DNA of 62,425 nt, counting the filler, from Collodictyon triciliatum (Eukaryota), in the NCBI GenBank assembly GCA_043381765.1. It is 4 parts of 4 records of this genome, joined end to end, with 100 filler letters (N's around TTAATTAATTAA, not from the genome) between each part and the next. Parts side by side here need not be neighbours in the genome. Positions count along the whole stretch, not along the records: positions 24,683 to 44,447 come from JBHJMP010001281.1; 3 more parts are not named here. One strand, written 5' to 3'. Of this stretch, positions 24,683-48,118 are shown piece by piece. How positions within the stretch are numbered: the stretch's first letter is position 1; each line of letters starts with the position of its first letter. The notes below the pieces were generated by a model. That model was given only the letters and a program-made list of their open reading frames with translations. It was not told where the DNA came from and searched no databases. A program made the translations under genes and the position numbers.

Positions 24683-24790
24683 ACATACATACATACATAC
24701 ATACATACATACATACATACATACATACATACATACATACATACATACATACATACATACATACATACATACATACATACATACATACAT
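24683..24790. repeat. (ACAT)n microsatellite at a contig start
   Basis: Read directly. Confidence 0.95.
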
Positions 24791-24868
24791 AGCCTTGATA
24801 AAGCGTAAGAATAGTACTCTTTCAGTTTTATTTGAACCTTTTTCTGACGCTACGATTCATTTCAATAG

Positions 24869-25429
24869 ACTGTATTTTTATATATCACCAAGGAGCCAAC
24901 GCATGCAATAGTGTCTCTTAATCGTCATTTTCCTGAAAATTCGTCATTATCCCAAGCTGAACAACTATTGAGGAGCCAACTCATACATCACATGCACTCC
25001 AGTCATCCGAACCAGACACCAAAATTTCCTGATGAAGCCCAGAAGCCACCTTCCATCGATCTTGACGTAAATCTCGATGGTGATAATGCAAAGGATGATA
25101 CCCCTGTTTCGTCTCAAACCTGCCTGTTGGTGGAATCCCCTGCAAGGGGAGTGAACCCATCACAATCCCCGCTAGTTACGCCGTTAACTCCGCACCAGCA
25201 CTCCTCTCGCCGCCCTTACCGAGCACCTCCATCACCACTTCATGCGGTATATTCTAGGGGGCCAGTAAATTCTCCCGTACATACCTCTAAATGCGAGCGT
25301 GATTCGATATATGCTTTGCGTCGCCTCGCTGCGTGGATGCATGACCTTCCAACAGTCCTTGAAGTCATTCAACACCATGAGTCTGACGAACCAACATATC
25401 AAAACGGAGCAGGTGTCGCTGATGATTGA
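24869..25429 (+). CDS. Terminal exon of a hypothetical protein (Pro/Ser-rich, ending IYALRRLAAWMHDLPTVLEVI...)
   Basis: Open frame of about 185 codons after a CAATAG acceptor, GC higher than flanking introns, followed by AT-rich 3' sequence; no family recognised. Confidence 0.6.
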   Translation, partial: TVFLYITKEPTHAIVSLNRHFPENSSLSQAEQLLRSQLIHHMHSSHPNQTPKFPDEAQKPPSIDLDVNLDGDNAKDDTPVSSQTCLLVESPARGVNPSQSPLVTPLTPHQHSSRRPYRAPPSPLHAVYSRGPVNSPVHTSKCERDSIYALRRLAAWMHDLPTVLEVIQHHESDEPTYQNGAGVADD

Positions 25430-26542
25430 ATTGGAGTTATATGTAAATAAATGAATAAATAAATTAAAAAAACCAACCAACCAACCAAAAGCACACTCAC
25501 ATAACAGCAGAGTGCACATATATTAACAGATATACAAGCAAATTGATGGGCTAAAAAAAAAAAAGGAATGAAAATCTAAATTTTATAATTCAGTATAGAG
25601 TCTACAAGGTGAAATTTTGGATGGCCACTTCTGCATGAATAATAGTGAAACCGTGGTAAGCCAGAAAGAGTCATGATTGTTTCATATAAGGAGAACTTTA
25701 TGCTATTTATTCGCTTGTATTACTCCAAAGATAGGGATGGTCTTTGCGTGACTTATCACAATTGATAACATAAGTTTATCCCTTGTGACTGTGTACATTT
25801 TAGTGTGGTATAATCTTTTAAGAGGATTGTGAACTTTCATCTCTTTCTTCAAACAAAGAACGTCTTTCTCTCTTTAAGTGGGAGTTTGAACAATCTAGTT
25901 GTATGGCTATCTTTTTTTCTCCCGAAACAATATGTTAAACCCAAGCTGAAGGCGGATTACGCGATATTTTTCTATGTGTCATCCAAATCCTAATACACTT
26001 TTCCTTCTTAAGCTGCGCTTGTGGCAATAAGCATATGTGTTTGTCTCTGGATTATCGGGATAGAAAAAAAAAAAGGAGAGTCGTGTCCTTTGCTGTTCAT
26101 TTCTGGTTGGGTATATAACGTAGGAAGAAACCCATTGAGTTAATGCCCTGTTCGAAGGTAGCTTCTGAAACACATCGTGAGAATATGAACAAATAAAGAA
26201 TTTTCTTCAAAACAGACTTTCAGGGAGGAGGAAGTGTGCAGGCAAAAAAATGTGTTCCTTTTTATGTATACTTATAGATAAGTGTGTCGGTTTATATTTT
26301 TTTCTTTTATCTTTTGATTTTTGTACTCAAGTTCTCCCTGAGATTTTTTTCTTTCATGAAGTTCTATTCCTACCAATTAACTAGACTCAGCTTGGTCTAT
26401 GAGTCTGAATACATATTTGTATTGGGGTATGCCCTTGTTTCTTCTGGTAGGATACTTCCTACAATTCTCTGCAGACAAAGAGGGAGGGAGAAAAAGAGAG
26501 AGAGAAACAGTAGAAAAGAAGAAAAAAAGAAGGACGACAAGT

Positions 26543-29500
26543 ATGTCCGAACCCAGAGCAGATACACTGTTCGAGAAAGCTATCGACCTTTTTCACGAAT
26601 GTCGTTTTCGGCGGGTATGGTTGTATGAAGTTCAACCTTGTCTTTAAAATTAGCTCTTTTTTTTCCTTTGGGTGATAATTTTTAGGTATTTAAACGATTT
26701 ATTATATGTGATTATAATTTGCTTTTACATCAAGACATAATTTGTCATTGTAAAAAGGAAATCTTCTGGTTAAAAATGAATCTAAACATGCCCTTCACAT
26801 TTTTTCTCCTCGTGCATATATATGTAAATAGTCCCTCTACTATGCAAGAAAGGCTCTTGATTTATACAGGAGTACAGGTCATTCGTTTGGTGTTATTAAA
26901 GCACTGGACTTAGTGGCCAGTGCACATTACAGTTTATGCGAATACAAGGAGTTCATTTCAAACAATGAAGAGATTCTAAGGTATAGGGCTTATAACTTTG
27001 AATGGAATGCATGCCTGATAAATTAGGTTTTTTCCTTTGTTGAACTGTATCAGAGTTTCCCTTTACAATTAAAAAAGTCTTAAAATGAATTAATCCTAAT
27101 TTATATAAAAGGTTAGCTCTCTTAGAGCAGGACCTTCAGATGGAAATGCGTTCAAAGTCATCACTTTCTGACGGTTTTTTTATTCAGGTATACTTACCCG
27201 AAAAAACTTTGATTATTTTCTCATGTTTATTAACATAATTAAAAAATAAAATAAAAAAGGGCCATAAAGACGTATCATGTCGGTATGTCCATGAGGCATT
27301 GTCTTTATCTGTACAATTGGGAGAAAAAGTCACCGAACTCAATCTTTTGGCTCAAGTTGCTTACTCCGAATGGAAAACACGGACTTCCATTCAATTTTAT
27401 GAACAATCTCTCGATATATCAAAGAAGGTAAATGTTGTTAAGCTTTCCTCTTTATCAAAGTTGATTTAATTTCAATCTATATGCTACCAAAATCATCTGA
27501 TTCATAATCCTGACATTAGTAAGTTCCTTAAAAATTTCGATGATTGAAATATTAGGAATCAGATTTTTTCTCAGTGGCATGGACTTTAACGAATATATCA
27601 AATGTGTATATGAGGGAAGGATCCTACTCTAAAGTACCCATAAGTCATCTCCTTTTTTCTTTTTAGTATTAACAGAAAACAACCTCTTAATTTATTGCTT
27701 TGTTTATGTATTTACTTTCTTAAAAAAATCCAGCGTACTATACAATTCATCACATCGATATATACATATCTGTTTTGCATTCATGAACAACCAACAATTA
27801 AAAATGTCAGAACAATCAACACCATATCCATTCTATTTGTAGGCTGTTGATTGCATGCACCAAGCTCTGCAAGTAGCAAAATCTCATACTTTCACCAAAG
27901 ATTGTCAGTCTAAACTCGAATCTAGGATTTTTAATTGTCTTGGAATAGCAGAATACAACCTAGGGAACTACAGTATCTCTTTCATCAATATTTTAAGTTC
28001 TTCTTTTCTTATTTAATTATATTCGATTCAAAGTTCATGTTCATCTTTTCTAATAATTCATTTATTATGGAGAGAAAAATGAGAGATTTCTTCAATCCTC
28101 ACATATTTCAATAAAAATTTGTTCTAAATGTGGTATTACCATGTATATATTATAGAGATAAGAAGGCCTTACTAAATTACATAACCAACGAAATAATTTT
28201 CCACTCAACTTCCCCAGATTCATCTCAATCCTATCTGCAACAAGGCATTCGGTGTGCACGAAAGTCTAACGACCGCTACTTTGAAGCTGCCATGATGGCA
28301 AATGTAGGTTTGGTGGAGGAAAGAATAGGTGAATCAGAATCGGCTTTGAGGCGCCACAGGTTACTTTTAAATACATTCCTTTAAAAACTAAAATTTAATC
28401 AACATATGCATCCTGCGAGAATTGATTTAGACCTAATAAAATTATCCCTCAGCCGTACACTTCGGGTATTTCGGCATATGGGCGCCAGGCATGAAGAGGC
28501 TTGTTGTCATGTTTATCTTGCAGATGACTACTTACATATGGGGAATGTGATTGAATCCATTAAAAACTACGTGTGTGCCTTTAGAATTGCTCATGAAACA
28601 TGTGACCAAGAGGTAACTTAACTGCACAAAATTCTACGCCTTTTTTTGAAAGAGGGCAGAGCCATTTACTTTTCTATGTTATAAATTATGAATATCTGTA
28701 AATAAATAAAATATTGTTCATAATTATATTCTTGGAAAAAAAAGGTTAAGTCAAGTATATATGGTGGGATGTGTGAGCTGACCTGTTCTGTCGGAGATTA
28801 CCAGGCTGCGATGAAATTCGCCTCGAAAAGATACGAAATGGCAACATTGATCGGAGACCCGTGTCAAGAACAGGTACGATTGGATCTTTCTTTCTATCTC
28901 ACTTTTTCTGCCTTGATTCAAAAAGAAAACCGATCGAGCGAATAGTCTCAATGAATGCCCAAAGTGCTATATAGTCATGTTAAAGGCTTAGAATCATGCG
29001 ATACCTGATTTTAATACAGATGGCATGTCAAAATATGGGATATGTACATTCACTTCTCGGGAATATACGAGAAGCCAACAAATTTTTTGCCCAAAGTTGT
29101 GAGATGGCTATACTCCATAATGATAAAGCATCGTATTGTAAAACATTATACCAATGGGGAAAGGTATTTAATTACTTGTATCTGTTAAATTTTACTTAAT
29201 CTTCTATTATTTTATTTTTATTCTGTCATTATTTCGTTTATAGTATTTACGTGGGTTTTCATATAATTGTTTGTATTTGGTTTATTTTATTTTTTTGATC
29301 ATATCGATATGACATCTGAAAAATTGGCAAAATGGCTCTCAGATATAATATATATCAATTAAAATAATATATACCAGAATCAGTATTTGTAAATAAAAAC
29401 TTATCAAAATGTTGATGTTGCTTTTAGATGGGGCCTTCGAGCGACCACGACGATGGGAATGAAGCATCCAAGGTATTGGACAGACTATCACAATCACATG

Positions 29501-31382
29501 AGCTTTCCAATCTCATTGGTTATGCTCAAGGTATCAAAGAATCTATGTCTGCATTATCCAGAGGTATATTCACACTTTTAATCGAATAAAGGAAAAAATC
29601 CAGAGGTTTGTATATATCAATTATATGTATTCTAGGCTACTTCTCCATTTTAACTTTTCTATTGTTTCCCAAAATAGAACCACCGACAAAAATTGCAAGT
29701 GATTTTCTAAAGCTGCTGAACAGCAATAAATTTTGTGATATTTTTTTTATTCACAAGACAGGTATTGACTCTATTATATGCATTAAAAATCTATAAATAA
29801 ATCTATATATTTTCCATTACAATACATTATATGATGTATTGATCTTGAACATTATTATGAATAAAGGCGGACACCATAAAATCGGAGCTCATCGCAGTAT
29901 ACTTGGATGTAGAAGTCCTTACATGCTCCACATAATCAAAGATACAAAGCCCGGGGATATCGTATCTTGGGAATTGTGTGATTTAAAACTGTTAAACATC
30001 ATACTTCAATACATTTACACTGGTCGGGTTATTGATTATGAGCAAGAAAGAAAAGATGAATTACAATTCATTGCCGATAAAATGGGGCTTCTACACTTAA
30101 AATGGATTCTGGAGTCATCGTTTTCTCTCGATATGAATATTAGTGACTTACCAAATTTTATTAGTGATAGCTTATCGAATGATTGTACAAAATTATTCAG
30201 ATTTATATTAAAGTCTTTGGATGAGGACTTCATGGATGATGGGCTTGATTTGGATGGCTCTATGGAAAATTTCGAGTCAATAACTTTGTATTCTGCTTTC
30301 TATGATCTTGTTATACACGTCGAAGGAAAAGTTATACCTTGCCATAGAGGAATTCTATCTGCCAGGAGTTGGTTCTTTCAACGATTACTTGGTATTGGGA
30401 TGTCGGAATCTCTGTCTTTAGGGGGTGAGTTACTCTTTCGTATGATGAGAGTGCATTTAAATTAATTTTTTTATTCTTCCTTTCAATTTTGTGCAGAGTG
30501 CATTTAAATTATATCATACCTAGAAGCATATGTATCACCGGTGGATATATTTTAATAAATCATTTTCAATACTTTACAGAAGAAAGATATGAGGTTCATC
30601 TTTCAGATGTTAGCTACAAATCTACCCTAGCAATGGTGAAGTTTTTATACACTGGGACGTTGGATGCTGATGGTAGTAATATTATGGAGGTCTTGGTCAT
30701 CTCAGATAGGTACCAATTACCGCGTATGAAAAGGGCTGCAGAAGTAGTCATATCAACACACTTGGACACCGAAAATGCGATTCATGTTTTGGCATCGGCA
30801 GATGCATATAATGCCGGGTTCATTTGAATAATAAATCAATAATATATTATGACATATTTGCAACACTTTATCATTAAAATATAGATAATATTATAAGAAT
30901 AGCTATCTGACTTGCAATAATGAGTAATTTGAAAAACATACTAAAGAATTTTAATAAACCATATTACAGTTGGCTGATCCGAAAGGCTGTGAAATACATT
31001 TTAAATAATTATGTATCATTAAGAAAACATAGTGGATGGGACTCACTAAATGAGAATCTGAGGTTATTCTGAACAGATTTCTAGATGTACATTTGCTTCA
31101 ATTTAATGGCATCTAAGTCTTTTAAGAAGCTTTTAATTATTTTTCTATTAGTTTTTTTGGTTTATTTGTTTTAAAGTCAAAGTCGTAAAATTCATGGCAA
31201 TATATAATTACAATAGAGATCATATTGACGAATGCTACCAACATTCACTCCACCGTACGACTGCTATCTCTCCGCATATAATACCTGAATCTTCAGAGAC
31301 CAGGAGTTCGTTGTTGCAGACAAGGAGGCCATCGCTCCGTTCTCTTCTGAGCACTGGAAAAAGGATACTTGGTTTCAGCTAA
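26543..31382 (+). CDS. TPR-repeat plus tandem BTB/POZ domain protein; multi-exon
   Basis: TPR-like exons: ESRIFNCLGIAEYNLGNY, EAAMMANVGLVEERIG, ACQNMGYVHSLLGNIREANKFF. BTB1: DFLKLLNSNKFCDIFF..IGAHRSILGCRSPY..ILQYIYTG. BTB2: YDLVIHVEGKVIPCHRGILSARSWFFQRLL..MVKFLYTG..DRYQLPRMK..ENAIHVLASADAYNA. Confidence 0.88.
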
Positions 31383-32109
31383 ATCAGAGCATATGCATGA
31401 TATAAATAAGCTACGTCTTTGAGGACATTGATTATTCAAATCGAGTTCCTCTCTTTAGCATAACATCTCAAATAAACATCCAAAAAGATTAATATTAGTA
31501 TTTTTTTTAAAAAAACGATAAAATTAAGTGTAAAATAAGAGAAACCGAAAATCATAACAAAGAAAGGATATAGTAAAAACCAGATAATTGGAAGAAAATA
31601 ACACAGAGGAATAAAAACTGAAGTCAAAGAGAGGTCGTACGAATTTCAAGGGATCAAGTATTGCTGAGGTATCATAATATATCCATTAAGATAAAGAAAG
31701 GTGAAAACAATAAACAATTAATGTAATTAAAGTGAAAAATAGGTTTAAAAGGAAAAATTTATAATCCCCGAAACATGATGCTTGCTAAACCATAGAAAAA
31801 AGAGCGAAAAGGAGAAAACTAATGCATGAAGATGCATGTACAAAATGATTCATATGAAAAAACAACCTATATCGTGCATATATTAATGTCTTATTACTCA
31901 AAACTATAATTTTGGGTATGGTCTTTTTCCTCGTGTTGTATTATATGATTGCGCTATCTTTGAGCAACATGAATTATATCTCATTGATAATGCATGGTTT
32001 CATGATTTATTGCTTTCCTGAAATAAAGAAGCTGAAAATGAAAACAACTAAAGGACTAGAAAGAATATGAGAAAGGTAAAAAAAAAAGAACATAAAGAAA
32101 ATCTCTTTG

Positions 32110-32984
32110 TCATTGCAGGATATCTGGTGTAGGCCAAACAAATGGCTCTTTGTTGGTATCACCTGCGTGGGATGCAACCATTTTCCCCTGCGGCAACAAA
32201 GATGGAACATCCAAAACTGTTCGATATTGAAAAGACCTCGTACTTTCATGAATCTTTGCTTCCATATGTGGCTCGTGATTATTTGCCTTCGAAGCTAAAT
32301 CTCTAATCTTGGCTGATTTTTGAAGGCGTTTTTGAAAAAGGGAAGAAAAAGAAAAGAAAGGTACAGTTAGAAAACGACTTGCAATAAATACCCACGATAA
32401 ATACATACATGCATCATACAGAAAGAATTATATACATTGCACTATGAAGTGAATAAATTATATAATTATTATGAGAAATATCGAGTGGATACATATTAAA
32501 ATGGGATGGGATGTAAGTATAGTGAGTAATTTACTTGCTATTTCTTGAGGGGTCAAGGATTGATGAGCTAATCCATGCCGTCTGTCAATACGTGATTGTT
32601 TCGCACGCGATTCAAATCCATCAACTTGCTCATAATCGTGACTCTTCATATCTCCATTTGTAGTTCCCTAAACCAAATCCATGAGCGACAGATTCCAAAA
32701 ACACGCTTTGCTGCACTATGTGTCGATGAAATAAATTACTGACGCATCGTAGGATCGCATCGTCTTTTTGCCGCTTCGGAGAACTCGCGGACATATCCTC
32801 AAAGTCATTTCGATTCGCGCTACCCATTTGTTCGGTGGTTATGTCATCCGAAAGCAAGCATGACTGAATCAATCGCTTTCCTTCGGTATGTCAAGATAAT
32901 AAAATTTAATCAATAAATCGGGAAATAATAATAATAATAATAATCAATAAATATGGAAATAATAATAATAATAACAACAACAAC

Positions 32985-33079
<95 letters not shown>

Positions 33080-33661
33080 CATATAATAAATATGTGAAGC
33101 ACTTGCATTTACGTGTTGAGATATGAATGTTTTTGTTTTTTTTTTTCAGAAAGAGAAAGAGAGAATTTTGTTATGTGCGATACATACCATCATGTTTCTG
33201 GACGATTGGCTGAAATTTGGGAGTAGCAAAAGAATAAACATGCCCTGTCTCTGATGCAATCAATAGGAGAACCTTTTCATAGGACAGTGCTTTAATGCCC
33301 AGTAGGAATTGCAATTATTTTGGATAAATTTACTCCAAAAATAATTTTGATGATTACTTGAGTTCCCGTTAGTGCACTTAGTTCGAAAGCCTATATTCAT
33401 ATCATATTACAATGTTAACCTTTTAACTTTCTTCTTCACCATTTTGAACTGGCATTATGTTTTCAAATTTGTGTTTTGACTTGAATGTGTTTCAACCTTT
33501 TTCATAATTCCTGCTTTTCTTTTGCAGAACGTAATCAGCCGTCTTCCTCGGTCTTCGATGAAGTTAATTTTTGTCTTACGCTTGTCGAAAGAGTTTCTTT
33601 CCAAGTCTTCCTCTTCAAATCCTGTTGTACCGTGCTCATCATCTGGATTCAATCTGTCCAT
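32110..33661 (-). CDS. SRF: SRF-type (type I) MADS-box transcription factor; multi-exon
   Basis: Spliced MADS box KRKTKINFIEDRGRRLITFCKRKAGIMKK/AFELSALTGTQ/VLLLIASETGHVYSFATPKFQPIV..EGKRLIQSCL closely follows SRF/Mcm1. The 3' exons are less certain. Confidence 0.92.
32925..33075. repeat. (AAT)n microsatellite in a MADS gene intron
   Basis: Read directly. Confidence 0.9.
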
Positions 33662-34039
33662 GCTTTTTCCAACTAATTGGGGCTCTCTTGCCCAACATAG
33701 AAAAATTTCTCACCATAAAGTGCGGAACAGTATCATACAACATATCGCCCAATATAGAGTGACATTTTGTCGACTTTAAAAACACACTTTGGTTACTATC
33801 ATTCTTTGTGAACTTGGTGAGATGAATCTGATTATTGTGTAAATGAAGAAAAGAGCTTTAATCGTGTTTACTATCAAGGTAATTTATAAAGCAAGCTGAT
33901 TATCTTTCTGAATTCCTTTTTATTGTATTGTTCTTCGTCCGTAAACCGTGCTACTCGTTATGGAAGTGTCGTTGCCTTGCCACCTAAATGGCACTTGCGC
34001 AATCGTGAATTCCATTTCTCACTCAGCGCTTCCAGTGCC

Positions 34040-34170
<131 letters not shown>

Positions 34171-34684
34171 TTCTTTTCATACTTTCTTGACTATTATATT
34201 TATGAAGTTTGGGTGGGCACTGTAAATACCAGTCAAAAATCAGTAAAATAAATAAGAAAAGTTGTGCGGTGCGGGTGCTGTTGAACTTGATAATGCTATC
34301 CCAGTGCATATCGATTTTTGTCGAGCTAGAGAAGCCAAGCGCGAGCGCATCTACCAGGATGGAATCAAATAGGATTCGTGCTAAAAAAAATAATAATAAA
34401 TAAATTGAAGCACCCGCGAAAAGCGACAGTAGGTGAGGTTATCGGTGCTACTTGAGTAGACATATAGCTTGCCTAGGCGATACAAAGGCAATATGTTTTA
34501 AACTCGATGCGTATGCATCACATACCCAAATAAAATGAGGGCAAGGATTGAGGAAGAAAAAAAGGCAGTTGAATCGTTCTTTTTCTTTCTCTGTTAAACC
34601 AACAGTCTGTGGTATAATTATAAAGAAGCTAAAATCACGAGTGATATTGGAGACAATTTTTACTTTATTTTTTCCCATAGCGAA

Positions 34685-39123
<4,439 letters not shown>

Positions 39124-39499
39124 AGCGCTCTTGACTGCCTCTATAGGAGCGCGTGGTGTTGGATCCATCTATTATATCTTCTTTTTTTTCTTCAATGAGG
39201 ATGAAGCCTGCAAGTATTCCAAAGAGCGTTAGACTGTAGTGCGTTTTGTTTACGCCACACGATCGTTTCATCAATACTGCCACATAATCCACAGGGTTTC
39301 TTGGTCGAGTATCCAGGAAGAGTTTACCAGAAGTATTGTTTATTGCGCGTTTTTTATTGTTTGTTTTTAGTTCTACTTGACCTGGCTTTTGGACATTGGC
39401 GGACTTTCTATGCTTACCGCTAAACTGTACCAACCACCCTTTTTATAATGGACGCAAGACACTATTTTGCCTCATTTATAGTTTTAAATTGCATTTTTG

Positions 39500-39660
39500 T
39501 ATATATTCCATAAAAACATGGGGGTTACCAATATTTCGATTGATAAACTTGGTGCGCTAATATCCAAGGTCTCACCACTTTTTTCACAAAGGCCGTGTAG
39601 TGATGAAGGCTGCCTGGAAAGACCCGACAGCCTGTTCTTTTAGAGGAATGCGTATGCACT
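39500..39660 (-). ncRNA. Putative Fanzor omegaRNA scaffold (relic)
   Basis: Five consecutive hairpins just 3' of the Fanzor stop: 39608-39632, 39572-39606, 39548-39568, 39527-39544 and 39508-39521. The position matches TnpB/Fanzor guide-scaffold loci; expression is unknown. Confidence 0.45.
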
Positions 39661-40191
39661 ATTGAAGGATTAAAAGAACTTCGTTGAGTATATCATTAGC
39701 GGTGTTAAAGTCCCTTGTCAAGAATACAGTTTGTTTGCTTTCTGAGCGATTAGATTATTTACATATGAGACATCTATACACTTTTTTGAGTTTCATTTCA
39801 GTTTCATATATTCCAGTTCTTTTTCGCAGTTGTAGCACATCTTGAAGGTTCTAAATTCATCTACACTAACTGTTTCAAAACGTTTGGATAGTATCATTCG
39901 TAATCCTCTTCCAATTGTTGCCATAACATGTTTCATCGGACATTTTCTGCTCCAGTCTCCATACGCCAGTACAACATCTTTGCCAAATGTCTTTTTAATT
40001 CTTTCCATAAACATTTGCTCATTTCTTTTTGTATTAACATACTGTCTCCATATCATCTTTCGAAAAGTTACGTGTTCATAAAATCTGGATAATTCTATCT
40101 GGTATTTTTACTTCATAGATACTTATTTTCGAAGTTTATCATAATCGACCGAGCACGAATTTTGTTTACTCGGTTCTGTCCCTAAATCGAT
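39659..40191 (-). pseudogene. Fanzor1-like RNA-guided endonuclease pseudogene (RuvC-II, zinc finger and RuvC-III region)
   Basis: Reconstructed: TEPSKQNSCSVDYDKLRK*VSMK*KYQIELSRFYEHVTFRKMIWRQYVNTKRNEQMFMERIKKTFGKDVVLAYGDWSRKCPMKHVMATIGRGLRMILSKRFETVSVDEFRTFKMCYNCEKELEY / KKVYRCLICK / SNRSESKQTVFLTRDFNTANDIL. In-frame TAA at 40123-40125 and 40108-40110, two frameshifts near 39790 and 39757; RuvC-I is absent. Confidence 0.85.
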
Positions 40192-40925
40192 TTAAGATAC
40201 TCTTGGTGCCTCAAACTGCTAATTCTCTTCAAAAGTCCTGGCGCCAAAAGAAACAGCACTTTGTAAACCTGTTGCCATGGATATCTTGCTACTCGCGAGT
40301 CGATGGCTAGAGCTCGTTTTGTTTTCTTTTTCTTTCCCTTTATTATTCGTTTCAAAGAGCTCGCTCCGTCTTATTATTAGTTTGTTGTACTCACGGGTCG
40401 GTGGCAGCTGGCGTCTTGGTCGTTAGTGTGTCTCGGTGCATAAACTGTGCTGCAAAGGATGTGATCAAGCGACCTTTTCGCTCTCTGCATTGGCTGCGTC
40501 AGCCTTCCCAGTTTGCGTCCGGTCAGTAGCCGTTCCACGGGGTCAGGGCTGTGGCGCCGGTCTCGTCCTTCTCGGGATCCCTCTTTCCGATCGCTTGTGT
40601 GTGTTTTTCTTTTTTTTCCGCTTCAGAAAGTAGTGGGGTTGGGAGAAAGTAGGAAAGAACCCCTATGCAATGATATTATTTATCAGAGAATATGTCATTT
40701 CTTCTCAGTGTTTATTATTTCTCAGCAAAGGACACTTTTTTTATTCAGCGCGATTATTTTTTATTGTTCTCGACTCTGTCTCTCTCTGTCAGTGCGATCA
40801 CCACATTTATTCACATTGTGTGGCATTGCAATAGATCAACCTTTGGAAATTTATTCCACATGAAGATATTTTTTTGGAAGTGTAACACCAGCAAAAGAAA
40901 AAAAAGAAGCGAAACTAAAACATCA

Positions 40926-40995
<70 letters not shown>

Positions 40996-41107
40996 GCGGA
41001 CTCAATGAGCACGACCAAATATAACCCATACGAAGCCTTCAACAAGGAGACTAGAACAAGCCCACCAACCAGACAAGCCTTCTCGAGAAGACTAGCTTTC
41101 TAAGACA

Positions 41108-43591
<2,484 letters not shown>

Positions 43592-43925
43592 ACCGAGTTT
43601 CCTGTGTTCTTCGCCTCCTCCATGTATTCTACTGTCCATAATGTGTCTCTTAACCCCTGGCTGTCTACCCTCTTCTCCCATCGTGGCTCTCTTTGTCCTA
43701 ACCGCTGACTCGATGCGACTCTACCGCCCTCTTCTCGCTGCTGCTCTCATGACCACCCAAATCCAAATAAACGCTCTCACAAACAGAGACGTGTGGACTG
43801 CCCCAGCAAGTTGGATTATAAATCAACGGCAGAAAGGTGTGGCAGAGATCGACTCTCGAGTAATGTGAAGGACTTGAATAGGAGGCTGCCCATAAAGGCT
43901 GAAGAGCAGAGTAGCAATAATATAA

Positions 43926-44255
43926 ATGAGCAGGAACGCAGACGAGCGCATCGGTTAGTAGTGATTTGTGTCTGATGGGCTGCTTCCTCTCTCTCTCAGA
44001 GCAACCCGTCATTTGCTCTGGGTGTTAGTATTTTGTGTGTCTTTGTGTATTTATATTTATAATATGCCTCTTTAAGTGTTGTTTTTTTTAATTTTTGTTA
44101 TTTGCTCATGTGTGCGCATTCGGTTCGAGGCCTCTGATTTCATTTGAATGGCCGCACTCAGGGGTTGTTGAAGTCAACGTGGGCCTTTACCGATGGTTTC
44201 AGTCGATTGAAGAAGTTTGCCTTGTTGTGACACTTCCTGTAGGAGTTCGTGCCAA
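43926..44255 (+). CDS. NUDCD2: NudC-domain-containing protein 2-like (CS/p23 domain), first two exons; truncated by contig end
   Basis: Exons 43926-43953 and 44162-44255 splice to MSRNADERIGVVEVNVGLYRWFQSIEEVCLVVTLPVGVRAK, resembling the NUDCD2 N-terminus (FEERSGVV..WYQTLEEVFIEVQVPPGTRA). Confidence 0.75.
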
Positions 44256-44447
44256 GTATGTGGATTTCTTCTTTTGCTGAAAGTTTATGACATGCTGTCC
44301 TGTCTGATCTCATTATCCTGTTTTGCTCTAGGTCTCTCTTTTTTGTAATTATTATTATTGTTATTATTATTATTGTTATTATTATTATTGTTATTATTAT
44401 TATTGTTATTATTATTATTGTTATTATTATTATTGTTATTATTATTA

Positions 44448-45763: not shown

Positions 45764-47227
45764 TCAGGCAAGGGTGGGCCGAACACCAACCGGACGTGGC
45801 GAATCTACAGATGAGGCTGACTTGAATCTAGAGACAGAAACAGCCCCAAAGAACCGGGAATTAGGAAGATGAATCCAGCGACACCAGCGAGAGGATTGGA
45901 GCGGAGCGGGCGGTAGAATGCGGGCGACGGAGATTAGTGTGCGGCACAGCAGACAGACACATGACAGGTGAGGGAGAGGGGATTCAGGGACGCACCGGCG
46001 GGGCGGGCGGGCGGAGAGAGGGGGTGGGCCGGAGGGCCTTTGTGGCGCGGGGCGGCGGCGTGTGTGCGTCCACGGCCCATGCCTGCAGACGGGTGCGCGT
46101 GCCGCGGGTGAGTATTGGCGAGACAGAGGGGGCGACTGGACGCACCAGCCACACAGCACGGCGCGGTGTGACATGGCATGACGTGGCAACAGAACAGAAG
46201 AGAAGAGAAGAGAAGAGGGACGCACGGCGGCGACGCAGCACAATGGCGTGGGAGTAGGCGTAGAAGGGGCGCGTGAGGGCCGTGGCGAGCGGGGCGTCGC
46301 TGTTGCTGTCGCTGTGCGGGGTGCGGTGCAGGGCGAGGCGCAGGCAGAAGAGTCGCTCGCGGTGCTTTGCAGATGCCTCGCACAGCGTCAGCCCCGCCAC
46401 CACGCACGCCCCGCCCACCACCGCCCACGCCCCGGGACCCCCCAGGATCCGCCCGCCCCCGGGCACCGCCTCCGCCGCGCCCTCCGCACCCGCGTACAGC
46501 AGCTCCGCCCGCACCCACAGCCCCCCGCCGGCGGCTGCTCCTGTGGCTGCTCCTGTGGCTGCCGGGCCCGACACAGACACCTGCACGCTGAACGACCTGC
46601 AGGCGGCCGGGGTTAGGATCAAGAGCGCAACCGGATGCTGGAGCGGAGCGGGGCGGGGTCCTACCGGATCTCCTGCGGCGTCCGCGTCCGCACCTCGCAC
46701 GGCGGCTGCACGTCGATGGTGAGCCGGAACGGCGTCGACGAATCCGGGTCTGTTGAATCCGGGTCTGTTGAATCCGAGTCTGTTGAATCCGAGTCTGTTG
46801 AATCCGAGTCTGTTGAATCCGAGTCTGAGGAGTCCGAGTCCGAGGAGTCCGGCAGCAGGGCGAGGGGCTCCGGCGGGGCGTCGCGCAGCAGGGCGCAGAG
46901 GGCCGGGTGCGGGCGCAGCAGGGCGGCGAGCGGGGGCGTGGGCAGGGCGGGCCAGGCGGCGGCGCGGCGGGCCACACAGCGGGCGACGGCGGCGGCGTTG
47001 AGGGCTGCAAAGCGCCGCACAGACGGCCCCGCCCCGCACCGGGCCACCACGCCGCCCGCCAGCCGCTCCGCCTTGCCCAGCTCTGCCGCCACGCGCCCCT
47101 CAAACAGCTGCCCCCCGCCCCACCGCCCCGCCTCCGCCACACGCCGCAGCCCCGCGTAGTCCACGTAGAACCCCGCCCACCCCGCCTGCGCCTGCGCCTC
47201 CCGCCCCAGCTGCCGTCCGAACCCCAT
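45764..47227 (-). CDS. SPX-domain protein fused to a putative Velvet/Rel/CBP60-like DNA-binding domain; 4 exons
   Basis: Exon 1 (47227-46665): MGFGRQL..WAGFYVDYAGLRR..FEGRVAAELGKAERL..VRRFAALNAAAVARCVARR (SPX pattern), a (DSDST)n linker, then FRLTIDVQPPCEVRTRTPQEIR. Exon 2 (46596-46226): SFSVQVSV..LWVRAELLYA..ILGG..LTLCEASAKHRERLFCLRL..TRPFYAYSHAIVLRRR. Exon 3 at 46082-45996; last exon uncertain. Confidence 0.72.
46737..46850. repeat. 15-bp coding tandem repeat (GAATCCGAGTCTGTT)n encoding an acidic (DSDST)n linker
   Basis: About 5 near-perfect units plus degenerate copies, read directly. Confidence 0.9.
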
Positions 47228-47489
47228 CCGCTCCCGCCCTTCCTGCCTGGATCGGCTCTGTCTGTCGTCCCTTTCTCCCTCTCTTTCTCCCGCTCTTTCT
47301 CCCTCCTGGCCTCTGCCGTCTGTGCCTGCCTTCCGTGGCTTCGTGGCGTCCGGTGGAATGCTTTTCCCTTGGTTGGTTGCTGTGTCTCGCCATGCCTTGC
47401 ATGATATCCGCCCGCTTCCGCTTCCGATTCCGCTTCCGGACATCGTATTCCGCATGTGGCTAGTGCACTCAACCAGCCAATGTAATGCG

Positions 47490-48118
47490 CTACCACAATT
47501 GGTATTGCCGCTTCTGGTGATTATCGGCTTTGCATCTTGTTTTTCCCTTTCGTGGAATTTTTGTGGAGCGATTAATTTACCTTTTGCTCTGTGTCAAAGT
47601 CAGCCAGGTGGTTGTGGATGTGTTTGATTTTATTCTCGATCGCACAGCTGGTCATGTCGGCGTTAGTGCAGTTTTCTTTGGGATTTGTCTGCAACTGGCT
47701 CGTCTGTGCCGAAGGAGTTGCCCAACCTAGCGAGTGTTTTCGTTAGCCAGCTAGCGTATTGGAATCCCTTGCATCGACATGTATTCGTATGTGTTGGACG
47801 TGAAGGGGGAGAGTGGCTAGGACAGCCTCAGGGCTTGCAATTGGTTGTGTCGGGATAGGAATCAGAAGTAGTTGTAAGTCATCAGGTATTTGTTTTCAGA
47901 CAGGGATAACTGTGATATATCTCATCCTTTCATATCCCGACACGGGAATAGCACTAGAGTTGCGTGGCTTGTGTCGTTCACTAACCTCTCTTCAAGACGG
48001 GCCAGGCGCTGGTGATTTCCTGTGCTGAATCCTGCTGTCCGTGTGTGTCGAGACGTCTCCCGAGTGAATTGTTGTGCCTGTTGTCGTTGCCAGTGCTGCG
48101 CATAACCGTGGACTGCAT
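47490..48118 (-). CDS. Possible small 3-exon hypothetical protein (about 100 aa)
   Basis: Phase-compatible GT-AG model MQSTVMRS...WPVLKR/GWATPSAQ...HNHLADFDTEQK/KRQYQLW*; no homology recognised. Confidence 0.3.

Follow-up and report, generated by a model that had tools for sequence, protein, structure and literature searches.

Tandem stem-loops beside a dead Fanzor1 gene fragment in Collodictyon triciliatum: a probable decayed omegaRNA scaffold

In the Fanzor1 systems that have been solved and assayed, the nuclease binds a transcript that runs from the 3' end of the gene across the right end of the transposon, with the stem-loops of this omegaRNA contacting the RuvC/TNB and WED surfaces of the protein and the 15-21 nt past the right end acting as the guide that directs cleavage of matching DNA. 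The TnpB omegaRNA of IS200/IS605 elements (ISDra2) is laid out in a similar way, its scaffold overlapping the 3' end of the nuclease ORF and ending at the right end of the element, from which a flank-derived guide follows. As described by Saito et al. 2023 (PMC10432273) and Xu et al. 2024 (PMC11423790), Fanzor1 omegaRNAs are 75-150 nt in length and have a conserved first stem-loop, a variable guide-proximal part and an overlap with the end of the ORF, which for the GtFz1 omegaRNA is given as 17 amino acids (PMC10432273).

The stem-loops considered here lie in the Collodictyon triciliatum window (the whole stretch of DNA that was analysed, 62,425 bases), within the part of it that comes from JBHJMP010001281.1 (positions 24,683-44,447), and the window, with about 35% G+C, long microsatellites, assembly gaps and a match to a C/D-box snoRNA, resembles eukaryotic nuclear DNA. 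The original prediction was of five tandem stem-loops directly 3' of a Fanzor ORF that together formed a candidate omegaRNA scaffold, and all five stems (SL1 to SL5) are found on the minus strand exactly where they had been placed. Our preferred reading, to which we give a probability of about 0.65, is that 39526-39635 on the minus strand is a decayed omegaRNA/fRNA scaffold remnant, left in a eukaryotic nuclear genome by a Fanzor1 transposon copy that is dead and truncated at its 5' end. The likeness to the omegaRNAs of GtFz1, SpuFz1 and PpFz1, as these are described in the papers cited above, lies in the segment's position on the ORF strand and at the ORF 3' end, in its several stem-loops within 75-150 nt, in a probable overlap with the last codons, in a course that would reach the right end of the transposon, and in a first stem-loop that would be the conserved part next to a variable guide-proximal part. 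Unlike in those systems, the nuclease gene in the window is a dead C-terminal fragment and only half of the scaffold is recognisable, and the likeness is one of layout. The ISDra2 TnpB differs further, since its element is bacterial and has another type of transposase and its RNA folds in another way, and no Rfam family matches at the window site, the best E-value around it being 0.9.

Table 1. Features at the Fanzor1 remnant and its stem-loops, in window positions. R1, SLa and the relatives' module are described in the text.
Feature	Position	Strand	Description
SL1	39608..39632	minus	10-11 pairs in a helix interrupted once, by a G-A mismatch or bulge (G39625/A39615); R1 aligns it to SLa of the relatives
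SL2	39572..39606	minus	Inner hairpin of 4 bp within an outer helix of 8 bp; 3' internal loop rich in A (AAAAA); holds TGA 39586-39584
SL3	39548..39568	minus	5-bp hairpin with 11-nt loop; chance-level stability; no counterpart helix in the relatives' module
SL4	39526..39545	minus	7-bp hairpin UAUCAAU/AUUGGUA; its 3' end is the point where related contigs stop matching
Flank past probable right end	39506..39525	minus	Holds SL5 (39508-39521); would be the guide if the module were transcribed, judging by the omegaRNA layout described in PMC10432273
Alternative 3' half	39464..39525	minus	Only in the full-length R1 alignment; long-range pairing UUUUUAUGG / CUAUAAA-GA, end ...GGCAAAAU; no related contig spans it
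Fanzor1 remnant, piece 1	39796..40107	minus	104 codons; RuvC-II region with Glu of 'VDEFRTFK', first CxxC ('CYNC'); ends at TGA 39795-39793, then frameshift
Fanzor1 remnant, piece 2	39662..39754	minus	Other frame; 'SNRSESKQTVFLTRDFNTANDILNEVLLILQ', RuvC-III RDxN motif; bounded by TAA 39757-39755 and TAG 39661-39659
Weaker Fanzor-like similarity	40108..40305	minus	Several stops; tblastn match of residues 37-209 of P0001, a fragmentary relative, spans 40305-39775, 46% identical

What had been called the Fanzor ORF is recognisable as a remnant, broken by a frameshift and by stops, of the last third of a Fanzor1 protein at its C-terminal end. Piece 1 (Table 1) matches positions 444-541 of the 613-position family profile with an E-value of 7.5e-42, and piece 2, whose frame reads '...RCLICK', stop, 'SNRSESKQTVFLTRDFNTANDILNEVLLILQ', stop, matches positions 558-583 (E 0.0015); in addition, residues 552-588 of the relative P0003 match 39799-39689 with 59% identity (tblastn). 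The Fanzor1 motifs occur in order and align to the family, namely the RuvC-II Glu, the CxxC zinc-ribbon and the RuvC-III Asp ('VDEFRTFKMCYNC', 'RCLIC', 'RDFNTAND'). The reading frame is incomplete, with only profile positions 444-583 of 613 found in any window frame and no WED/REC or RuvC-I region among them, and it is broken by a frameshift near 39790 and by stops at 39795, 39757 and 39661. When the family profile was compared with all six frames of the window, nothing Fanzor-like was found further upstream of 40305 and no N-terminal piece was seen, and blastn, tblastn and the family profile found neither a second Fanzor nor other copies in the window. On the same strand, about 30 nt separate the last protein motif that can be recognised from the start of SL1. 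In most related contigs the stop codon at 39661-39659 is replaced by the sense codon AAG (39661 A>T), so that the original frame probably extended further, to the TGA at 39586-39584 inside SL2, with SL1 and half of SL2 overlapping the last codons. The placing of the stem-loops directly 3' of a Fanzor ORF is therefore borne out for the strand and for the 3' end, and has to be amended in that the ORF is a decayed fragment and that the first stem-loops probably lay partly within it.

A phmmer search of 1.8 billion representative proteins returned 1370 matches to the remnant, the best of them 60% identical, while the best full-length match, P0003 (634 aa), is 54% identical, with the piece aligning to its residues 451-550. 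A profile built from 12 full-length relatives matches the solved Fanzor1 proteins PpFz1 of Parasitella (9cf0, E 3e-78), SpuFz1 of Spizellomyces (8gkh, 3e-73) and GtFz1 of Guillardia (9cer, 3e-57), and the family is assigned to Fanzor1 on this ground. Pfam gave a sub-threshold match of the relatives to PF07282 (TNB domain) and no match for the window piece, and a word-based protein search likewise gave no match. The library proteins nearest to the remnant are short pieces encoded on contigs of less than 1 kb, and those that were inspected have odd inserts or altered motifs.

Comparison beyond the window was made with 158 relative loci from metagenome and viral contigs, many of them on giant-virus bins. 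The nearest full-length relatives lie in Tc1/mariner-type elements on giant-virus and freshwater-metagenome contigs, and a large Fanzor1 clade (L001-L004, L082-L086 and most of L005-L158) is found on giant-virus, freshwater or marine metagenome contigs (e.g. L002:1137-4452). A second scan, made with the closest protein fragments, returned ten loci of the same elements and no closer viral loci. In the closest group the element is about 3.3 kb long, is bounded by perfect terminal inverted repeats of 32-33 nt that lie about 3.2 kb from each other, and carries on the opposite strand a 346-aa ORF with DDE_3 and HTH domains, a transposase of the Tc1/mariner-IS630 type that is found in 24 of the 158 loci.

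At the 3' end of the Fanzor1 ORF, 137 of the 158 loci share a conserved block (nhmmer, above 40 bits) that spans from the last codons to the right inverted repeat, beyond which the sequences diverge. This module is about 154 nt long and ends in the right 32-33-nt terminal inverted repeat. The protein tail encoded in it, 'GEKVGQSVDFTVGKAT', is conserved as DNA even in loci where the ORF stops earlier (L085, L062 and L146), which points to a constraint on the RNA. The L001 module folds at -71.3 kcal/mol (z -7.55, 0 of 200 shuffles), and RNAalifold applied to MAFFT alignments predicts, besides a hairpin and a stem-loop within the ORF tail, two long-range helices between the terminal repeat and sequence upstream, with compensatory changes at 11 of 31 pairs in one alignment and at 5 of 11 pairs in another (70 sequences). 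In an alignment of 35 model hits, which was fitted to the model and is hence biased towards structure, 89.7% of the cells are paired as compared with 40-59% with slid partners, double changes occur in 35 of 42 pairs, and none of 500 shuffles equals this. The block in the relatives has the marks of a structured RNA, as would be expected of an omegaRNA scaffold of the kind described in PMC10432273, PMC10530073 and PMC11423790.

The Tc1/mariner-borne Fanzor1 elements L001-L004, L082, L084 and L085 are the closest full-length protein relatives of the window copy, 45-56% identical over the 104 codons of piece 1, and in the model alignment SL1 and SL2 match their first two stem-loops, SLa and SLb, in the same place relative to the ORF tail and with the A-rich 3' internal loop included. 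The relatives' module differs in its length and in its long-range helices P1 and P3, which pair the terminal inverted repeat and go with the z-score given above for L001, whereas the window has two simple hairpins there. The window also lacks the relatives' inverted repeat, their 'GGTGTAAA' end and their DDE_3 transposase: no transposase was found in it by tblastn, nor an inverted copy of the end, nor an inverted-repeat pair.

The segment 39526-39635 on the minus strand folds as exactly SL1-SL4, four tandem hairpins, at -32.1 kcal/mol (z -2.37, 2 of 200 shuffles as good). For the interval 39500-39660, in which the five stems had been proposed, the minus strand reaches -43.5 kcal/mol, a value matched by 1 of 200 shuffles (z -2.56), as against z +0.81 for the plus strand, where 160 of 200 shuffles are as good, and the fold of this interval exceeds chance and is specific to the minus strand. 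The G-U pairs that had been taken to favour an RNA structure on this strand are present (e.g. U39627-G39613, U39603-G39575 and U39543-G39528), and the difference between the two strands agrees with that argument. The excess stability is confined entirely to SL1 and SL2, which together (39570-39635) give z -3.01 with 1 of 200 shuffles as good, while SL3 and SL4 alone give z -0.59 (52 of 200) and 39464-39571, inside which SL3, SL4 and SL5 lie, gives z +0.11 (105 of 200). SL5 is absent from the minimum free energy fold of 39500-39660, in which its bases close a multiloop. In the extended region 39460-39640 the z-score is -1.61 (13 of 200), so that the module as a whole lies at z -1.6 to -2.4 in the window, as compared with the -7.55 of the intact relative L001.

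The covariance model R1 was built from the seven closest modules (group A), with a structure set by hand from the alignment and RNAalifold, and with an effective sequence number of 1.15 and a shortened calibration it is nearly a single-sequence model whose E-values are rough. Run unfiltered over all 62,425 bases and both strands, it placed its top match, over the full model, at 39464-39635 on the minus strand with 23.2 bits (a rough E of 7.9e-5), the runner-up in the window reaching 9.6 bits (E 0.48); with default filters it gave no match in the window. Authentic modules from remoter members of the family reach 23-35 bits with the same model, and on 562 kb of locus DNA, with default filters, it made 35 matches in 100 loci, none of them away from the ORF 3' end. 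In the R1 alignment SL1 falls at the first stem-loop of the relatives, with 10 of 11 pairs standard, and SL2 at the second, SL2 matching SLb in its outer helix, inner hairpin and AGAAAGUU loop, and the 5' strand of SL3 falls in a single-stranded linker. The 5' half (SL1 and SL2) scores 13.6 bits with R1 by itself and the 3' half 3.9 bits, and the alternative 3' half of Table 1 is a weak match that probably arose by chance. A sequence-only profile of the R1 alignment finds nothing, and the R1 score therefore comes from structure. Other searches gave little at the site: with nhmmer, neither the family profile nor that of the closest group found anything at 39460-39660, blastn of 39400-39720 against the 158 loci found only short chance matches, R2 (a 3'-half model from 70 family sequences) had no match up to E 10 in the whole window and 4.9 bits locally at the site, and R3 (an SLb-only model from more distant groups) had no match at the site. 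R1 places SLa about 5-6 codons downstream of the position expected from the protein alignment, and the match between SL1 and SLa may be one of analogy rather than homology. As judged from this one model, homology to the relatives' module would hold for SL1 and SL2.

Some smaller likenesses were also noted in this stretch. The motif GTCTTTC (39623-39617, minus strand) is identical to the family-wide conserved CGTCTTTCAC, and a potential pairing of GGUCU (39624-39620) with AGACC (39570-39566) resembles the outer helix that the second stem-loop has in distant groups. This pairing excludes SL1, and R3, a model of that stem-loop, has no match at the site. The likenesses seen by eye ('GAAAAAAGT..GAGACC', 'TCAATCG', the end 'GCAATTTAAAA..GGCAAAA', and 'GTCTTTC' taken with the GGUCU/AGACC helix) are unsupported by nhmmer, R2 and R3 and count only as unexplained likenesses. 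Scans with 16-mers hit 16 loci in viral contigs and at least 120 in genome contigs with no extended similarity, and these hits are taken as chance matches.

Related copies were sought in four public sequencing runs, which gave 27, 8, 179 and 203 contigs at least 80% alike to the stretch and cover small shares of it (0.04-0.08); no run recorded as RNA contains the stretch. The repeat is multi-copy in the runs of two coded organisms. Contigs cover the stretch from 39510 to past 40500, and depth is zero over 39408-39509. In all four runs the contigs with the difference at 39560 break off 33-35 letters after it, at about 39525-39527, and a loose end in X1 has ...GGTA in common with the window before departing from it. 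The repeat probably has its right end immediately after SL4, at about 39526 and ending ...GGTA, though the stop at this point may instead be the clipping of diverged contigs. With a right end there, SL5 and the 3' half proposed by R1 would both be flank, and SL5 is best seen as probable flanking DNA past the end of the repeat. The R1 alignment proposes a different end, at 39464, as against the end at about 39526 in these short contigs, and no second end or target-site duplication is definable.

The picture of substitutions among these copies is that of the best-supported 40 of 308 differences and 12 of 29 indels. Five of those 40 substitutions fall in 39527-39635: three are in loops (39560, 39592 and 39593), U39603 is C in most related contigs, which turns U39603-G39575 into a C-G pair, and 39615 reads U on the minus strand in most contigs, which turns the G39625/A39615 mismatch into a G-U pair. 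The indels at 39591 and 39621, among the best 12 of 29, are both in loops of the stem-loops. Among the best 40 of 308 differences there is no two-sided compensatory change, and the changes that keep pairs are one-sided. Three single contigs (in X3 and X4) skip 202-243 nt of the ORF, namely the zinc-ribbon and RuvC-III part, joining 39631-39641 to 39836-39875 at low depth, and these may be internally deleted derivatives that keep the module. Summed contig depth at 40377-40500 is 560-770 in X3 and X4, versus 250-400 over the Fanzor remnant, which indicates that what lies upstream of the remnant is itself a repeat of higher abundance; in several contigs the two are collinear.

By homology with the described systems, the intact ancestor of this element would have produced the same kind of transcript, bound by its nuclease and extended by a flank-derived guide. 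In the window copy the nuclease gene is dead, its N-terminal two thirds being absent or unrecognisable, and only SL1 and SL2, the 5' stem-loops that would once have overlapped the last codons, appear to retain a fold that is clearly non-random and corresponds to the relatives' module. SL3 and SL4 would occupy the expected guide-proximal place without being distinguishable from chance hairpins, SL4 ending at what would be the repeat boundary. We infer the former omegaRNA identity of the segment from its observed position, strand, fold statistics and model match and from the covariation observed in its relatives. Of the original prediction, the derivation of the segment from a Fanzor guide-RNA module is retained, the best R1 match in the window being at the site, and its extension to all five stems is not: the stems that exceed chance and that R1 matches are SL1 and SL2, while SL3 and SL4 are at chance level and SL5 lies past the probable boundary at about 39526.

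The simplest competing account is that the hairpins arose by chance in decayed coding and 3' flanking sequence and that the R1 match reflects luck with two adjacent hairpins. Such an account, which we regard as unlikely, would fit the chance-level behaviour of SL3-SL5, the failure of R2, R3 and the sequence profiles at the site, and the nearly single-sequence nature and rough E-values of R1, and the site had originally been chosen for its hairpins. It would have to explain, however, why a blind search of the whole window with R1 put its top match, 13.6 bits above the next, on the right strand and at the 3' end of the one Fanzor remnant that the 62 kb contain, why SL1 and SL2 stand at z -3.0 on the minus strand only, and why the listed contig differences (best 40 of 308) spare or improve pairs. 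A structural account of another kind takes the hairpins for DNA-level features, subterminal in the carrier transposon at its right end, such as transposase binding sites or a hairpin-forming end, rather than for RNA structure. The ending of SL4 at the presumed repeat boundary would agree with this, as would the overlap of the viral relatives' module with the 32-33-nt terminal inverted repeat of a DDE_3 (Tc1/mariner-type) element, but the fold is strand-specific and uses G-U pairs, which DNA palindromes would not need, the window has neither a left inverted repeat nor a transposase, and the relatives' helices covary, including ones well inside the repeat, and we consider it very improbable.

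A bolder account keeps the RNA and gives it a present function, such that the ORF is dead while 39526-39635 is transcribed and loaded in trans by an intact Fanzor1 elsewhere, with a guide that runs from 39525 downward. Precedents are described in the cited sources, where ORF-less omegaRNA loci work with a Fanzor in trans in S. punctatus (PMC10432273) and extra fRNA copies occur in C. reinhardtii (PMC10530073), and in being a multi-copy guide-RNA module next to no working nuclease gene the window copy is like them. Those copies, as described there, are highly conserved, have both inverted repeats and are expressed or active, whereas the window copy is decayed and 5'-truncated. The presence of the repeat in many copies in two organisms' runs would suit such a function, as would the single contigs that skip part of the ORF and resume at the start of the module and the sparing of stems by the listed differences (best 40 of 308). 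The window holds no intact Fanzor, though, the nearest proteins in the library are short pieces, the guide-proximal half lacks both stability and conservation with relatives, the window copy has the G-A mismatch in SL1 where most contigs would pair, and the fold is far weaker than that of the intact relative; we judge a live guide RNA at this site to be improbable. For these reasons the claim that a still-folding omegaRNA, with the scaffold at 39526-39635, could be loaded in trans is unsupported. A wider version of this account is of a multi-copy family of ORF-dead or internally deleted Fanzor1 fragments whose 5' omegaRNA stem-loops are kept by selection as 'ghost' guide RNAs for a rare intact Fanzor1, in a lineage shared with the Tc1/mariner-borne Fanzor1 of freshwater giant viruses. 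We hold this to be improbable as well; if true, such a lineage would point to virus-host exchange of an RNA-guided nuclease system. As ORF-less omegaRNA loci are already described in PMC10432273 and PMC10530073, even this boldest reading belongs to a known kind. On the preferred reading, that of a decayed scaffold remnant, the segment shows no sign of still working and is the expected kind of relic.

If that preferred reading is true, the locus is one more decayed Fanzor1 copy whose guide-RNA region outlived its nuclease gene, which helps to annotate the repeat family and to date its decay and leaves what is known of Fanzor unchanged. A by-product of the comparison is a well-supported, covarying consensus structure for the guide-RNA module of a large Tc1/mariner-borne Fanzor1 clade on giant-virus contigs, which could aid the mining of compact RNA-guided nucleases. 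The link at protein level between this viral clade and a repeat in a eukaryotic genome is also a lead on virus-host exchange.

Other features of the window were noted in passing. The sole Rfam match in the whole window is to snoR38, a C/D-box snoRNA, at 47855-47935 on the minus strand, with 47.9 bits as compared with a gathering score of 45; the block around it (46001-48000, 65% G+C) is the one part of the window that is rich in G+C. Around the remnant there are long (ATT)n/(AAT)n microsatellites in both orientations (40926-40993, 41813-41928 and 44341-44446) and a tetranucleotide repeat at 38573-38700 that is interrupted by an N gap. Finally, a stop-free frame of 311 codons, rich in Ser, Pro and Asp, extends over 41949-42884 on the plus strand, 2 kb from the remnant.
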